Both the position numbers and the translations under genes were made by a program. DNA of 18,000 nucleotides from positions 1 through 18,000 of the forward strand of contig JAEOTE010000011.1 of NCBI GenBank assembly GCA_016839945.1, in the 5' to 3' direction. The notes beneath the pieces are model-generated. The model was not told the DNA's origin. It saw nothing but the letters and a program-made list of their open reading frames with translations, and ran no database searches. This DNA is from Candidatus Heimdallarchaeota archaeon. GTDB lineage: Archaea > Asgardarchaeota > Heimdallarchaeia > Heimdallarchaeales > Heimdallarchaeaceae. Below are positions 3,381 to 9,634 of the stretch, piece by piece (within the stretch, counting starts at the first letter, position 1; each line of letters starts with the position of its first letter).

Positions 3381-3397
3381 AATAAATTTTTTAAATA
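3381..3397 (+). promoter_or_regulatory. Putative BRE/TATA promoter of thrS; predicted transcription start near G3417
   Basis: AATAAA-TTTTTTAAATA, with TTTAAATA (3390-3397) 27 nt before the GAGGAC that opens the leader helix. Confidence 0.6.
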
Positions 3398-3416: not shown

Positions 3417-3524
3417 GAGGACAATGCTAGGTGAATATGAAACAATTAAATAGCAATTTTTTAATATCCCTACAGATAAGTAGGTGCGCTGTCCTCTTGA
3501 GAAAAGTTTTACAGGTGATAAAAT
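3417..3524 (+). promoter_or_regulatory. Structured thrS 5' leader (candidate cis-regulatory RNA)
   Basis: GAGGACA (3417-3423) is complementary to TGTCCTC (3490-3496); internal hairpin CCTAC-AGATAA-GTAGG; three AGGTG copies; contains a uORF. Confidence 0.55.
3424..3453 (+). CDS. Putative thrS leader peptide MLGEYETIK
   Basis: ATG CTA GGT GAA TAT GAA ACA ATT AAA TAG, 7 nt from the predicted transcript start. Mirrors the leuS uORF in length and in position of the cognate codon. Confidence 0.4.
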   Translation: MLGEYETIK

Positions 3525-5442
3525 GGTCAAAGTAGTTTTACCAGATGAAAGTATAATAGATGTTCCTAAAGGAAAAACTGTATATGAAATAGCACAACAA
3601 ATCAGTCAAGGTTTAGCTGATGCTGCAATCGCTGCCAAAATTGACGGGAAATTAGTAGACTTACATTATGTGATAGAAGAAGATGTGAAACTCGAAATTC
3701 TAACTAACAAATCAGAAGAAGCATTACACGTCTTAAATCACAGTGCAGCTCATATAATGGCTGGAGCGGTTGTTGATCTATTTCCAGATGCAAAACCAAC
3801 CATAGGACCAAGTATAGATCCTGTTGGGTTTTACTATGATTTCTATGTTGAAGAACCATTCACTCAAGAGGACTTAGAACGAATTCAGAAAAGAGTAGAA
3901 GAAATAATACTAGAAGACACTGAATTTATTAGAGAAGAAATGTCTTTATCTGAAGCCATTAAACATTATGAGAAAGAAGACATAAATAAGTTCAAAGTAG
4001 AAATTCTAAAGGAAACAGAAGAGAAAGAAATATCCTTCTATTCCCATGGAGATGGGGCCTTCAAAGATTTATGTCGTGGACCACATTTACCAACAACCAA
4101 AAAAGTTAAAGCTGTAAAAATCTTAAACGCTTCTTCTGCATTCTGGCGAGCTGATGCTGCTAGAGAATCATTACAACGAGTTTATGGTGTAGCATTTTTC
4201 ACTTCTAAAGAACTGAAAAAGCACATTAATATGCTTGAAGAAGCAAAGAAAAGAGATCATCGCATCCTTGGGAGACAGCTTGATTTGTTTGATACAGCTG
4301 ATGAATGGGGACCAGGTATGCCTATAATCTACCCTAAAGGAAGAGCTATTCTAGAAGTTATGAGAGATTTCTGGAATAAAGAACATGAGAAAGCTGGATA
4401 TGATTTAGTTCAAACTCCTCATGTCTATAAAGAAATTGTTTGGCAAACCAGCGGTCATACTGACTACTATATTGAAAATATGTTCCCAATTAATTTACAA
4501 GGTGAAAAATGGTTTGTTAAACCCATGAATTGCCCCGGACACATGCTAATCTTCAATCGTCGAACTTACTCATATAGGGAACTTCCTGTTCGAATTGGAG
4601 AAATGGGAACTGTTTACCGTAACGAACTTTCAGGAGTACTACACGGATTATTCAGAATTCAAAGTATAACTCAAGATGATGCTCATCTATTCATGCTACC
4701 AGATCAGTTGGAAGATGAGATTGTAGGTGTCATTGAAATGGTCAATCATTTCTACAAAGTCTTTGGTTTTACTGATTGGGAATTTTTCATCAGTACAAAA
4801 CCAGAAAGGGCAATTGGTACTGAAGAAGGATGGAATCATGCAATAGATTCTCTTAAGAATGCTTTAGTTAGAGCAGGACAACAATACAAGATTAAAGAGG
4901 GTGAAGGAGTATTCTATGGTCCAAAGATTGATGTTGATGTAAAAGATGCAATAGGAAGAAGATGGCAACTTGCAACTATTCAAGTTGATTTTAACCTTCC
5001 AGACAGATTTGATATCAATTACATTGGTGAAGATGGACAGAAACACAGACCATATGTTATTCATCGAGTAATCTATGGAGCAACCGAAAGATTCCTTGCT
5101 ATACTCGTAGAACATTATGCAGGAAAATTACCTGTCTGGTTAAGTCCAACTCAAGCAATAATCATTCCAATAACTGACAACCAAATTGAATATGCAAAGA
5201 AGGTTTCACACGAATTAAAACAAGCAGGTATAAGAGCAGAACCAGATCTTAGTGGAGACAGAATGGAATACAAAATAAGACATGCTACAATGCAAAAAAT
5301 CCCTTACATAATCAATGTAGGAGAAAAAGAAGTTGAATCTAAAAATATAGCTGTAAGATCACGAGGAAATAAGGTTGAATTTGGTGTGAACATTCGGGAT
5401 TTCATTAGAAAAGTACTAAAAGAAATTGGAGAATATAAATAA
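3523..5442 (+). CDS. thrS: Threonine--tRNA ligase, bacterial/eukaryal type (TGS + editing + class II core + anticodon-binding domain), 639 aa
   Basis: TGS N-terminus, editing motifs NHSAAH and DLCRGPH, RDHR, KPMNCPGH, YRNE.SG.LHGL.R, QDDAH, FYGPKID, IHR, ERF, P.WLSP.Q. Start moved from GTG 3484 to ATG 3523 because AGGTG lies 5 nt upstream and homology begins at MVKVVLPD. Confidence 0.97.
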   Translation: MVKVVLPDESIIDVPKGKTVYEIAQQISQGLADAAIAAKIDGKLVDLHYVIEEDVKLEILTNKSEEALHVLNHSAAHIMAGAVVDLFPDAKPTIGPSIDPVGFYYDFYVEEPFTQEDLERIQKRVEEIILEDTEFIREEMSLSEAIKHYEKEDINKFKVEILKETEEKEISFYSHGDGAFKDLCRGPHLPTTKKVKAVKILNASSAFWRADAARESLQRVYGVAFFTSKELKKHINMLEEAKKRDHRILGRQLDLFDTADEWGPGMPIIYPKGRAILEVMRDFWNKEHEKAGYDLVQTPHVYKEIVWQTSGHTDYYIENMFPINLQGEKWFVKPMNCPGHMLIFNRRTYSYRELPVRIGEMGTVYRNELSGVLHGLFRIQSITQDDAHLFMLPDQLEDEIVGVIEMVNHFYKVFGFTDWEFFISTKPERAIGTEEGWNHAIDSLKNALVRAGQQYKIKEGEGVFYGPKIDVDVKDAIGRRWQLATIQVDFNLPDRFDINYIGEDGQKHRPYVIHRVIYGATERFLAILVEHYAGKLPVWLSPTQAIIIPITDNQIEYAKKVSHELKQAGIRAEPDLSGDRMEYKIRHATMQKIPYIINVGEKEVESKNIAVRSRGNKVEFGVNIRDFIRKVLKEIGEYK

Positions 5443-5489
5443 AACTCCTTTTTATATTTTTTAATAAAATAAGAAAATTGGGAAAGGAT
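5443..5489. terminator. Bidirectional U-tract terminator region between convergent thrS and DAK2 genes
   Basis: CCTTTTTATATTTTTT on the plus strand after thrS; A-tracts (U-tracts on the minus strand) after the DAK2 stop. Confidence 0.5.
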
Positions 5490-6173
5490 TTAATTTCCAT
5501 TTTGAAGTTTTTCAAATTCTTCCTCAATATGAGCAATTTTCATGCCAAGGCTATCCATTAATTGGAAACACCAACCTAACCAAACATTAACAAAGCCCAT
5601 AGCTCCTGCATCAACGACTCCAGCTTCTTTTAACACAGGAAGCAAATTAGGTGTATTTTCAAGAGAAACAACTGCAGTAGCATAAGTTTCTGTAATCATT
5701 TCTGTCCAGTCACCACCTTTCTCAGCGATAGTCTTAGCAATAGCTGCTGTATCTTTGATAACTGTAAGAATAGTTCCTTCAGTTGGATGAAGGACTGCTT
5801 CATATGCCCATTCACAACCTGCTTCTAATGCTATAGCAAAATCTTCTATTCCTACTTCTTCATGTTCTTCAATTTCAGCACTAAATCCTTGGAAGAATTG
5901 GGAAATAATTACACCAGAATTTCCTTTTGCCCCAAGAAAACTGCCTTTGGTTATAAGTTGAGCAATTTCTGGAATAGTAGAAGAATCTACATCATCAAAC
6001 TGTTCAATAACTGCTCGTATTGTTAAAAACAAATTAACTCCTGTGTCTCCATCAGGAATTGGAAAAACATTGATTGCGTTAAGCTCTTCTTTTGTTTGCT
6101 CTAGATTGCTTGCTGCAGTGAGCATCATTTTCTTCAATGTTACGCCGTCTATTTTTGAGTTAGGTACCATCAC
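5490..6173 (-). CDS. DAK2-domain protein equivalent to the N-terminal ATP-binding domain of fatty acid kinase FakA/YloV (start GTG 6173 or ATG 6170)
   Basis: LNAINVFPIPDGDTGVN, GAKGNSGVIISQF, YEAV..PTEGTILTV and TPNLLPVLKEAGVVDAGA match FakA/YloV N-domain motifs. Confidence 0.9.
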   Translation of the reverse strand: MMVPNSKIDGVTLKKMMLTAASNLEQTKEELNAINVFPIPDGDTGVNLFLTIRAVIEQFDDVDSSTIPEIAQLITKGSFLGAKGNSGVIISQFFQGFSAEIEEHEEVGIEDFAIALEAGCEWAYEAVLHPTEGTILTVIKDTAAIAKTIAEKGGDWTEMITETYATAVVSLENTPNLLPVLKEAGVVDAGAMGFVNVWLGWCFQLMDSLGMKIAHIEEEFEKLQNGN

Positions 6174-6177
6174 TTCT

Positions 6178-6237
6178 TTAGCCCCATTGTCTTTGTGGTT
6201 TCTTTCGTTTGTTACGAATCTTACTCTGTGGAAGCAC
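6178..6237 (-). CDS. Putative 19-aa basic small protein or uORF, MLPQSKIRNKRKKPQRQWG
   Basis: GTG start with AAGGAAG 9 nt upstream; TAA ends 4 nt before the DAK2 GTG; 7 of 19 residues are K/R. Confidence 0.35.
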   Translation of the reverse strand: MLPQSKIRNKRKKPQRQWG

Positions 6238-6255
6238 TATTTAATACTTCCTTGT

Positions 6256-6367
6256 TTATATGTACATAAAATATTGAACAGTATAATTACAATTTCAATA
6301 TTCTGCAATTTCTCTCCAAAAATTACTTTAAAAAATTATGCATTGTGCTTATTATATGGCCATAAAA
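6256..6367. repeat. Two copies of the imperfect palindrome TTATATG-NN-CATAAAA (6256-6271 and 6352-6367), candidate operator pair
   Basis: 14 of 16 positions identical, 96 bp apart; each core (TATGTACATA, TATGGCCATA) is a perfect 10-bp palindrome. Confidence 0.5.
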
Positions 6368-6387
6368 CACTTGAATTCTTAAGAATT

Positions 6388-6410
6388 GGAGAAAAAGAAG
6401 AAAAAAAGAA
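6388..6410 (-). terminator. U-rich terminator downstream of leuS
   Basis: Minus strand TTCTTTTTTTCTTCTTTTTCTCC about 55 nt after the leuS stop. Confidence 0.55.
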
Positions 6411-6465
6411 TAATAGTAATTTTCAAAGTTCCAATTATGATCTTTTCTTATGTTTGCTTTATTCA

Positions 6466-9399
6466 TTACTCTAACAGTAAGGCAGGTTTCATAGGTCGAG
6501 CTTTTTGTGATTTATTTTGTGGGTCATATATGTCTTTACGGTCTGAGAGGTGTATTAGGATTTCTGCATTCTCATATTTAGTGCTAATGAACTCTTTAAA
6601 TCCAAGAATTGCATTTTCTTGGTTTTTCGCACTTAATGTTTCAATTCTGAAAATTGTAGGATCTTTAAACATCAATTTTACTTCGTTAGCTATTTCACTC
6701 ATATAGTTGTTTAATTTTGCACTTTCCTTAGCTGATGCCATGATTTTACCTATTTGCACTGCTTCATTTTCGAAGATAGTTTTTGCTAATTCATATAGTT
6801 CGTTCTTCCAATCAGCATTAACATAGATGTGAATCTTCTTTGGTTTGGTTTTTACTAATTTCACAATCTGATCGATGTCTTCTATAAGATCAGTCATGTA
6901 TTTTGCTTGTAGCGCATATAGTAAATCCTTATCACTAACATCAATATCAGGAATCTGTTTCAGAGAAATGTAATCCTTATTTCCCATTCTTTCGTTCAAT
7001 TCTTCACAAATATGTGGGATAGCAGGAGCCATTGTTACTACCATCATTTCGATTACTTCTTGAAGTGCAGTTTTCTTTTCCATTTCTGGTAAGTGTTTAG
7101 CAAACTTATGATATTCATCAATTGCTCTTATGTTCGAATAATAACCTTCCAAGATGTATTCTCTAGCACTGAATCTTTCAATTGATTCCATTGCTTTTAT
7201 TAGATTTGTTTTTACAGATGCAATGAATACTTTTGATAGAAATGAAAATTCAATTTTCTCTTTATTTGATACATTGATTACACTCAAACTGTATTCCCAG
7301 AACTTTCTCAACCTTTGAAGTGCGAAGTTCACTTCATCTTCTTTCCACTCAAGAACAGTTTCAGGTGTGGCGATGGACGCTAGATGTAATCTTGTTACAT
7401 CAACACTATATTTGTTGGGAACCTGTGCAATTGGAATTACATTTGGTTTACTCTTACTCATCGCTTCTCCATCACGACTTAACATTTCGTTCAATGAAAA
7501 AGCTGGTAACCAATATTTCTCTGGGAAAACTGCAGTATGATGAAATATAGCAAACGATAAGTGATTGGAAATATGATGCACAGCTGTATGTCTAAGATCA
7601 TTAGGATACCAGTATTCAAATTCTTGTTTCATCTGATTGATTGTTTGCTCTGTTATTCCTGAATTCTTTACTAAATCTTTGATATTGCCTTTGGATAAAA
7701 ACACATAATCAAATAATTCTGGCTTTAATTGTTCTGGTTTCAATTTATTTTCCTTTATGTGTCTGACTATTGTATAGTATGCCATATAAATAACTGAATC
7801 ACTTAATGATTCTATTATCCAACCTTCACCTTCTGTAAAAGGAAATTCTGTCCCTAATCCTCTTCTTCTTACACAAGGTCTCTTATCTAACCAATCAAAG
7901 GTATTTTCAAAGCTTAATCTATATTTATCTGGAGTAATGAGCATCTGATTTAATGCTTTAGATGCTTTCTCTTTCCATTCGGGATTTCCATAGTTCAGGA
8001 AATATTGATTCTGAATTATTGCTACGATGATTTGACCTCCACATCTGCAAAAAGCTTTTGTTGAGGGTTCGTAGATTGGTGAGGCTAAGTTTATTTCAAA
8101 TAATGTATCTGCGACTTTGTTCTTGGCTTCTTCTACTTTCAGCCCTACATAATCTCCCGTATTACTTTTCATAATCCCTGAATAGTATTCATCCTTGTAA
8201 ATTGTCTGTGTTGCTTCCTCTAATTTATCTCTATCTTCTTGAGATTTCACCCCTAGCTTCTGACATATTTCAACTGCTGGGAATTCTCCATAACCTTTTA
8301 CATCTATAAGAGAAATTGGTTCAATTTCCTTCAAGTTTTCTGAATTTAGATTGTACTTAGCAATTGTTTCTTCATCTTTTTGTAAGTCAGCAATAGCTGC
8401 ATGATCATATGGAGCATGTCCTGGAACACTATAAACAATTCCTGTAGCATGATCTGTATCAACAAATATAGCAGGATATACAGGTATTTTCCTTCCTGTT
8501 ATTGGAACTTCTGCATATACATCTAATAGCTCATCACCTTTCAATTCACGTTTTATTTCAATCTCATGATTCTGTTCTAATAGCTTCATGGTGGCTTCTT
8601 TAGATACAATCCATATCTCTCCATCAATTGAGATTTCATTGTAGGTTGCATTTGGATGTATCCATACATTAGTAGCACCGAATATTGTTTCTGGACGAAG
8701 TGTTGCAGCAACAAGAAAGACATCATTATCAAGTTTAAATTTAATTCCAACAAATTCATTAACTTCTACATTAAGCTCGTCCCCATCTTGAATATCATCC
8801 TCACCAACAGCATTCTTATCATTTACACACCATAAAATAGGATAATCTCCTTGTGTTATCAGCCCTTTGTTATTGAGTATTGAGTATTGCCACTTGATGA
8901 ATTTGTTATACTCAGGATCTCCTGTTGTAAATTCCCTAGTTGTATCAAGTGAATATCCCATTCCCAGGAAATCTTGGATTATTTTCTCTGCAAAGTAATT
9001 AGCAACATTTTCTGGTTCTGAAAAAGAAGAGACTACCTTTTCAATTCCTTCTTTGGTACTCTCGTAATATGAGATAAAACCTCTCATCTTTTTCCATTCG
9101 TTTTCATCGTTATTCTTAATTTTCCACGATACTGCGAGTACTGGAGTTCCAGTAATATGAAATCCCATTGGCCATAGAACGTTGTATCCTTTTTGTCTCT
9201 TGAATCTCGCAAATATGTCACCTAAACCATAAGTTCTAGCGTGTCCAACATGAAGAGGAGAAGTTGCATAAGGATAAGATACTGTCAAAAACCACTTGGG
9301 TCTTGAGCTGTCAATATTCGCGACAAAAATTTCATCATTTTGCCATTTCTTTTGCCATTTTTTCTCTATTTTTCGTATTTCATCTAGAAAAGACACCAT
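6466..9399 (-). CDS. leuS: Leucine--tRNA ligase, archaeal/eukaryal type
   Basis: HIGH motif as LHVGH, GFHITGTP, CP1 editing motifs ATLRPETIFGATN and TGIVYSVPGHAPYD, CRCGG, IESLSDS.IYMAYYT, F.YWYP.D.R, KMSKS as AMSKS, archaeal C-terminus KARPMKPA. SD GGAG 6 nt upstream. Confidence 0.97.
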   Translation of the reverse strand: MVSFLDEIRKIEKKWQKKWQNDEIFVANIDSSRPKWFLTVSYPYATSPLHVGHARTYGLGDIFARFKRQKGYNVLWPMGFHITGTPVLAVSWKIKNNDENEWKKMRGFISYYESTKEGIEKVVSSFSEPENVANYFAEKIIQDFLGMGYSLDTTREFTTGDPEYNKFIKWQYSILNNKGLITQGDYPILWCVNDKNAVGEDDIQDGDELNVEVNEFVGIKFKLDNDVFLVAATLRPETIFGATNVWIHPNATYNEISIDGEIWIVSKEATMKLLEQNHEIEIKRELKGDELLDVYAEVPITGRKIPVYPAIFVDTDHATGIVYSVPGHAPYDHAAIADLQKDEETIAKYNLNSENLKEIEPISLIDVKGYGEFPAVEICQKLGVKSQEDRDKLEEATQTIYKDEYYSGIMKSNTGDYVGLKVEEAKNKVADTLFEINLASPIYEPSTKAFCRCGGQIIVAIIQNQYFLNYGNPEWKEKASKALNQMLITPDKYRLSFENTFDWLDKRPCVRRRGLGTEFPFTEGEGWIIESLSDSVIYMAYYTIVRHIKENKLKPEQLKPELFDYVFLSKGNIKDLVKNSGITEQTINQMKQEFEYWYPNDLRHTAVHHISNHLSFAIFHHTAVFPEKYWLPAFSLNEMLSRDGEAMSKSKPNVIPIAQVPNKYSVDVTRLHLASIATPETVLEWKEDEVNFALQRLRKFWEYSLSVINVSNKEKIEFSFLSKVFIASVKTNLIKAMESIERFSAREYILEGYYSNIRAIDEYHKFAKHLPEMEKKTALQEVIEMMVVTMAPAIPHICEELNERMGNKDYISLKQIPDIDVSDKDLLYALQAKYMTDLIEDIDQIVKLVKTKPKKIHIYVNADWKNELYELAKTIFENEAVQIGKIMASAKESAKLNNYMSEIANEVKLMFKDPTIFRIETLSAKNQENAILGFKEFISTKYENAEILIHLSDRKDIYDPQNKSQKARPMKPALLLE

Positions 9400-9597
9400 T
9401 TACATCTCCTTGAATTATGTTTTTCTCTTGTTCTGAAACAGCTTATGTAATTACGTTTTGAAAAACTAAAATAACTAATAAAAGAATTGTCTTCTGACAT
9501 TATAAAGCTGTTAAAGATGTAAGAAACCTGGAAACCACTAAAACAGATAGCCTTCTTATTTTGGAAGAAGAACACGATACCCCATTTTGGTTTCCTC
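9400..9597 (-). promoter_or_regulatory. Structured leuS 5' leader of about 198 nt (candidate cis-regulatory RNA)
   Basis: Helices GGAAACCA/TGGTTTCC (9595-9588 with 9537-9530), CTTCTT/AAGAAG, TTACATCTTT/GGAGATGTAA (9522-9513 with 9409-9400) and AACAGCTT/AAGCTGTT (9512-9505 with 9444-9437). Confidence 0.65.
9556..9585 (-). CDS. Putative leuS leader peptide MGYRVLLPK (tandem CTT Leu codons)
   Basis: ATG GGG TAT CGT GTT CTT CTT CCA AAA TAA, with GAGG SD 8 nt upstream. Confidence 0.5.
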   Translation of the reverse strand: MGYRVLLPK

Positions 9598-9618: not shown

Positions 9619-9634
9619 CTTATTAACTTTTTTG
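9619..9634 (-). promoter_or_regulatory. Putative BRE/TATA promoter of leuS; predicted transcription start near G9597
   Basis: Minus strand CAAAAAAG-TTAATAAG; the TATA box begins 29 nt before GAGGAAACC. Confidence 0.55.

Follow-up and report, generated by a model that had tools for sequence, protein, structure and literature searches.

How an archaeon might adjust the output of an aminoacyl-tRNA synthetase to the charging of the cognate tRNA is the question raised by two genes of the window, by which we mean the whole 18,000-nucleotide stretch of DNA analyzed here. The source genome is a Heimdallarchaeia metagenome-assembled genome (MAG) of the same family as Ca. Heimdallarchaeum aukensis and endolithica. 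A sequence-only reading of the window had proposed that thrS and leuS carry leaders of shared architecture, each with a short upstream open reading frame (uORF) that holds a codon for the amino acid of the downstream enzyme, and that a ribosome pausing at this codon when unfilled changes frame or RNA structure and thereby switches on the synthetase. The two genes, each with its own Shine-Dalgarno sequence (SD), are:

3523..5442, + strand: thrS, bacterial-type threonine--tRNA ligase (TIGR00418 of NCBIfam above cut-off); own SD at 3513-3518
6466..9399, - strand: leuS, archaeal leucine--tRNA ligase (TIGR00395 of NCBIfam above cut-off); own SD at 9410-9405

Between leuS and the convergent thrS, positions 5490-6173 (-) encode a stand-alone 227-aa DAK2/FakA N-terminal domain, by matches that lie below cut-off. 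The thrS of bacterial type is found in the genus and in family f4, with a distant type in the other families of the order, and the thrS leader would have been acquired with or after that transfer.

Re-inspection of the sequence located all six features attributed jointly to the two leaders. Upstream of thrS these are arranged as follows:

3390..3397, + strand: TATA-like box of the thrS leader promoter, at a spacing constant in orthologs; transcript start predicted near 3417
3417..3423, + strand: SD-like run of the thrS uORF (GAGGA at 3417), also the 5' strand of helix P1
3424..3453, + strand: putative sensor uORF of thrS, 9 codons, in 18/18 complete ortholog leaders
3429..3434, + strand: internal SD-like run of the uORF, at register 14 to the P-site codon (18/18)
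3439..3444, + strand: predicted +1 slip site, GAA (P site) and ACA (Thr, A site), invariant in 18/18
3443..3535, + strand: open +1 frame, open in 18/18, the window's own frame being free of Thr codons
3457..3462, + strand: U-tract 3' of the uORF stop, a run of at least five T in 16/18; candidate FttA/aCPSF1 site
3490..3496, + strand: 3' strand of helix P1, pairing with 3417-3423

The Thr codon of the uORF occupies 3442-3444, and the +1 frame terminates at a TAG (3533-3535) located 11-13 nt into thrS. In the ortholog alignment conservation starts at GAGGA, while the stretch from the TATA-like box to this motif is variable. The +1 frames of the 18 leaders together contain 1 Thr per 495 codons, with a pN/pS of 1.11. 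Helix P1 is paired in 94.6% of cells across orthologs and shows one compensatory change, its covariation not being significant (128/500 shuffles). No terminator or antiterminator hairpin was found in the thrS leader.

The leuS leader, on the opposite strand, is laid out similarly:

9619..9626, - strand: TATA-like box of the leuS leader promoter, its spacing kept in orthologs
9588..9597, - strand: SD-like run of the leuS uORF at the predicted transcript start (GAGGA at 9597), also the 5' strand of helix P1
9556..9585, - strand: putative sensor uORF of leuS, 9 codons, with an internal SD-like run at 9583-9579
9568..9573, - strand: predicted +1 slip site, GTT (P site) and CTT (Leu, codon 6, A site); NTT then CTN in 30/30
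9384..9569, - strand: open +1 frame, open in 30/30 leaders within the class and in 21/23 of other classes
9530..9537, - strand: 3' strand of helix P1, pairing with 9595-9588

Two adjacent Leu codons (9570-9565, -) are present in this uORF. The +1 frame ends at a TAG (9386-9384) situated 14-16 nt into leuS and has no Leu codon before the leuS start. Helix P1 is paired in 18/20 aligned leaders, with two replacements of A-U by G-C. A second promoter-like motif lies within the leader at 9495-9477 (-); in five genomes (L007, L014, L019, L020, L025) the uORF has been lost and the inner motif retained, suggesting that the latter is a basal leuS promoter.

Comparison with orthologs separates what is general in these leaders from what is particular to the window. 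Eighteen thrS and 30 leuS orthologs retain the cognate-codon uORF, and six further synthetases have a leader of sister design. The sequence-only reading had described AATTT(T)GAGGA at the transcript start; GAGGA near the predicted start, and at TATA spacing, holds in orthologs, whereas the AATTT prefix is specific to these two leaders. The proposed 5' helix is recovered as conserved complementarity without significant covariation. A uORF of nine codons ending in Lys-stop, with the cognate amino acid at codon 7, is an accurate description of the window, but length and last residue vary in orthologs, and the Leu that is invariant among leuS leaders is codon 6, the second Leu (codon 7) being variable. 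Similarly, the uORF shares the frame of the synthetase in 18/18 thrS leaders but in only 8/30 of leuS. On this comparison the fixed nine-codon length, codon 7, the Lys-stop and the same-frame rule were dropped as general features. In contrast, the SD-like run within the uORF 5' of the cognate codon proved general and at fixed distance, and the +1 frame lacking the cognate codon and open to a TAG just inside the gene is found in both leaders, its openness and its scarcity of cognate codons being conserved in orthologs. The features common to the leaders are thus an in-frame start codon, the SD-like run at fixed distance, a slippery codon followed by the cognate codon, an early stop and an open shifted frame with few cognate codons.

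Is this layout restricted to the two genes of the window? Inspection of every synthetase leader of the source genome revealed it also at proS, metS, ileS and tyrS, where it is kept in relatives. In Asgard archaea eight synthetase genes have such a leader (thrS, leuS, proS, metS, ileS, tyrS, trpS, pheS), each uORF with one invariant cognate codon. The leader was not found in the upstream regions searched of valS, aspS, asnS, cysS and hisS; in the source genome argS, lysS, alaS, gluS and serS are without it, and glyS was not located there. The thrS and leuS uORFs are conserved throughout the genus, the latter in four families of the order, and both complete Heimdallarchaeum genomes have the Pro, Ile and Leu leaders. 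Beyond the class, the motif is present in 23/38 leuS loci from eight families, 21 of the 23 with an open +1 frame, and these 38 loci took no part in motif definition; the proS leader outside the class was found at just 2/37 loci. The uORF, cognate codon and open frame that the sequence-only reading had seen thus persist in orthologs, and the same design recurs before other synthetases. A codon-blind scan of the whole genome returned 198 loose matches, 27 of them with an open shifted frame; 7 of the latter are synthetase leaders, each with its own codon, and about 10% of the non-synthetase matches have an open shifted frame. Scanning all fetched upstream regions in the same codon-blind manner yielded 212 open matches with the gene's own amino acid, across the eight genes, and 0 in 93 valS, aspS, asnS, cysS and hisS regions, although the motif was derived from these same sequences and related leaders are not independent. 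Three extra motif matches (second matches or matches within the upstream gene) were removed by hand to reach the set of 214 leaders analyzed below, and the codon-blind scan gives the same count without hand removal. The uORF start codon lies 2-8 codons 5' of the cognate codon, always in frame, and the stops alternate between TAA, TAG and TGA; variable but in-frame starts and interchangeable stops argue that the uORF is translated. That the leader element is real we take as practically certain.

Several loci related to this set deserve mention. The genus has two ProRS types (~478 and ~503 aa; L077-L083 versus L098-L106), one found per genome searched, and the ProRS leader accompanies only the shorter (~478 aa) type. 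Second, divergent IleRS genes (L412, L413) likewise have an Ile leader with an open +1 frame. A valS gene of family f4 (L356) may add a ninth member to the set of leaders: its uORF has a Val codon preceded by CAG, and the +1 frame continues without a stop to an ATGA overlap. Upstream of valS in L067 and its genus relatives, a conserved short inverted repeat directly precedes the TATA-like box, possibly a protein-binding site.

The codons around the cognate position divide the leaders into two classes according to the predicted direction of slippage. Cognate codons of the +1 class (Thr, Leu, Pro, Met and Ile leaders) start with A or C and follow an NAA or NTT codon. The pairing is NAA before A and NTT before C, with three cases of TTT before A, so that the P-site tRNA can re-pair one base on in the new frame. 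The -1 class (Tyr, Trp and Phe leaders) shows instead TTG, GAA/GAC and then the cognate codon. In tyrS the Tyr codon follows TTG GAA, with an open -1 frame; from this the -1 direction was predicted for trpS and pheS before their orthologs were fetched, and it held in 27/27 and 28/28 leaders, respectively. Measured from the P-site codon, the best SD match is at register 13-14 for +1 leaders, at 17-21 for -1 leaders and at 14-16 for true starts. These registers presume the usual archaeal anti-SD, as the assembly yielded no 16S 3' end, and that of the +1 class is partly built into the search motif. The register of ileS is split because two SD-like runs compete. In bacteria, short SD spacing accompanies +1 and long spacing -1 frameshifting (PMC5009743). 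Within the -1 class, re-pairing of GAC to GGA is poor in most trpS leaders, and many genus-level pheS leaders permit also a +1 reading from another frame. The canonical -1 signal, a slippery heptamer with a 3' stem or pseudoknot, is absent from this class, and no conserved 3' structure was found. In one pheS leader (L251) Ile replaces the Phe codon in the preferred frame, a Phe codon being retained in the +1 frame.

What lies downstream of the slip site is equally regular. Taking "open" to mean uninterrupted over 55-220 nt and reaching to no more than 30 nt from the synthetase start, the predicted shifted frame is open from the cognate codon in 212/214 leaders, compared with 26 for the alternative frame and 37.5 in shuffles, and after thinning to <50% identity in 64/65 versus 13.7; kin are not independent and these counts are not formal p-values, yet eight genes and many families agree. 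The shifted-frame stop falls within -13..+20 of the synthetase start in 184/212 leaders (40 as ATGA overlaps), and thus overlaps the start or lies within ~20 nt of it, as expected for termination-reinitiation. Since archaeal reinitiation requires an overlap or a gap of <~20 nt (PMC10666635), the uORF stop cannot couple to the synthetase whereas the shifted-frame stop can. In 4/214 leaders (L028, L029, L263, L401) the shifted frame is fused in frame with the synthetase, where a slip would yield an N-terminally extended enzyme, as in prfB.

A frame read only while one tRNA is uncharged is expected to avoid that amino acid. Among non-redundant leaders, 65 cognate residues are seen in the shifted frames against 159 expected. 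Per 100 shifted-frame codons, the frequencies in the own gene versus the other genes are 0.2 versus 4.9 for Thr, 4.8 versus 12.5 for Leu, 0.15 versus 3.2 for Pro, 2.4 versus 9.7 for Ile, 1.0 versus 4.8 for Tyr, 4.1 versus 10.9 for Phe, 0 versus 0.65 for Trp and 0.7 versus 1.4 for Met; Leu, Ile and Phe codons are thus lowered but still present in their own frames. The shifted-frame peptide is not conserved (pN/pS of 0.6-1.1 versus 0.1-0.3 for the synthetases), and it appears from these sequences that the cell needs the crossing of the leader, not its peptide product. The tyrS leader of G000 C6 (L137, L064) lacks 17 nt found in its closest relatives (L138, L139), so that the uORF's own frame reaches a stop overlapping the tyrS start; it represents either a constitutive allele or an assembly error.

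The leaders are quite probably best explained as a tRNA-charging feedback sensor built on ribosomal frameshifting. More specifically, we think it likely that they form an Asgard sensor family in which a programmed +1 or -1 frameshift at a single hungry codon acts as the switch of synthetase expression, a purposeful form of starvation frameshifting whose direction would depend on the slip codon and on how far away the SD lies. A ribosome would initiate on the short uORF and reach the single cognate codon with the slippery codon in the P site and the SD-like run behind it. With cognate charged tRNA plentiful, it would terminate at the uORF stop and leave the remaining leader bare; with charged tRNA scarce, the A site would stay empty and the P-site tRNA would slip (one base forward in the +1 class, one back in the -1 class), the ribosome then traversing the leader in the shifted frame to the synthetase start and switching on output. 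Less certainly, output may be raised by termination-reinitiation at the synthetase start, or by the ribosome on the leader keeping FttA/aCPSF1 off the U-tracts and melting the 5' helix. Reinitiation and FttA blocking would each fit the leaders, and either, or both, may operate; within the model, we are least sure of the -1 chemistry and of the output step.

Structure bears on this output. Of the leaders with a conserved 5' helix (thrS, leuS and proS), proS alone gives strong duplex z-scores, those of thrS being moderate; in metS and pheS the helix is weak or absent, and consensus folds give a single long-range helix or nothing. The synthetase SDs are good and not specially sequestered (predicted unpaired probability 0.44-0.52), and conserved pairing over the synthetase ribosome-binding site (RBS) was not found in the leader folds, with models that perform poorly on AU-rich RNA. 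An OFF state based on RBS occlusion is thus unsupported, and repression would have to come from termination or from inefficient internal initiation. In most thrS, tyrS, ileS and trpS leaders a U-run comes after the uORF stop; such runs are weak or rarer in pheS and proS. FttA, which prefers U-rich RNA and whose exclusion by ribosomes has been put forward as a hypothesis (PMC11616081), is encoded in 13/13 family genomes searched.

The stalled-ribosome switch of the sequence-only reading is supported, and of its two branches a change of frame is preferred over a change of structure because of the slip-compatible codon, the open frame, the cognate depletion and the lack of special sequestering of the synthetase start. 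An attenuator working by stalling, in which a pause at the cognate codon alters RNA folding or shields the U-tract without any frameshift, would make use of the conserved helix of thrS, leuS and proS and of the U-tracts after the stop, and the internal SD could stabilize the pause. Nevertheless, it leaves unexplained the frame open in 212/214 leaders, the match of its direction to the slip site, the cognate depletion and the fixed NAA/NTT codon; moreover, there is a single cognate codon and no hairpin terminator, helix covariation is not significant, and the metS and pheS leaders have no common structure. We regard this alternative as unlikely. We consider it distinctly improbable that the open frame represents a conventional small gene, initiated at a start codon of its own and translationally coupled to the synthetase, with a uORF that only modulates its initiation. 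A shifted-frame start codon does occur near the site in 18/18 thrS leaders, making direct initiation possible in this gene, as well as in 20/22 proS and 21/30 leuS, and pN/pS is slightly below 1 in several genes. Such a start is rare, however, in pheS (3/28), tyrS (7/23), ileS (10/37) and trpS (10/27), where the frame is open nonetheless; it would fall at register 12, uncommon among true starts, and the peptides are not conserved and vary freely in length.

The high conservation of nucleotides around the codon, with GAA before the triplet in five genes, would also suit a T-box-like RNA in which tRNA recognizes the cognate triplet as a specifier, independently of translation. As the sequence-only reading had noted, there is no T-box consensus, and the window and nine other loci gave no Rfam match above gathering score. 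No stem I or antiterminator was found, the open frame would have no explanation, and the starts 2-8 codons upstream, always in frame, and the alternating TAA, TAG and TGA stops are those of a translated element; we consider such an RNA highly improbable. Finally, short uORFs are common and the motif has 198 loose matches genome-wide, yet chance combined with shared ancestry is scarcely credible given that in eight unrelated leaders the equivalent position is each time filled by the codon of the downstream gene, with conservation over families and classes, and is rejected by the blind scans and shuffles.

If the frameshift sensor is correct, archaeal synthetase control and purposeful starvation frameshifting would be revealed together, in the lineage closest to eukaryotes. 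The eukaryotic amino-acid response likewise works via uORFs. The elements are small (100-200 nt) and amenable to direct reporter tests, and the paired +1 and -1 leaders would form a natural experiment on how SD-spacing rules apply to archaeal ribosomes. A 2016 review knew of no starvation-specific use of hungry-codon frameshifting (PMC5009743), and one from 2021 lists fucA1 as the only archaeal cellular frameshift gene (PMC8211752). Our literature search, with most subscription papers outside its coverage, found neither a report of such a frameshift sensor nor an account of archaea matching synthetase levels to tRNA charging.

Among known systems, the +1 autoregulation of bacterial release factor 2 (prfB) resembles the leaders in its short first frame, its internal SD stimulator, the slip of the P-site tRNA while the A site fills slowly, and the feedback on a translation component. 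In prfB, however, a stop codon occupies the A site, in place of the sense cognate codon of all 214 leaders; the shifted frame encodes the protein, whereas here it usually ends at the gene start and is fused in only 4/214; and the SD is separated from the shift codon by 3 nt (register 10), which is 3-4 nt closer than the 13-14 found here. The leaders are, in addition, archaeal and include a -1 class. In the ketolide-induced ermCL leader, frameshifting on a uORF similarly carries ribosomes over a spacer and turns on the downstream gene (PMC5009743), but the trigger is an antibiotic rather than a hungry codon and the output is the unfolding of an RBS-sequestering structure, of which none was seen in the leader folds. 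Leader-peptide attenuators (E. coli pheM-pheST, trpL, hisL, thrL, leuL) also sense charged tRNA through a cognate-codon uORF; they work by stalling on several cognate codons in a row, coupled to terminator/antiterminator hairpins, whereas the leaders have one invariant cognate codon and showed no such hairpins, and frameshifting on pheL has been described as incidental (PMC5009743). As in dnaX and IS911, longer SD spacing goes with -1 and one SD may serve initiation and shifting, and as in hungry-codon shifts starvation would cause P-site slips; unlike in dnaX and IS911, neither an X XXY YYZ heptamer nor a conserved stimulator on the 3' side is present, and the use is that of a sensor. Most shifted frames stop ~20 nt or less from the start, like archaeal termination-reinitiation pairs (PMC6728339, PMC10666635), and reinitiation together with FttA termination (PMC11616081) supplies candidate outputs, described so far for constitutive gene pairs. 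Each part thus has a precedent, while the combination fails to fit any of the families checked, and if true it would represent a third general solution beside T-boxes and attenuators.
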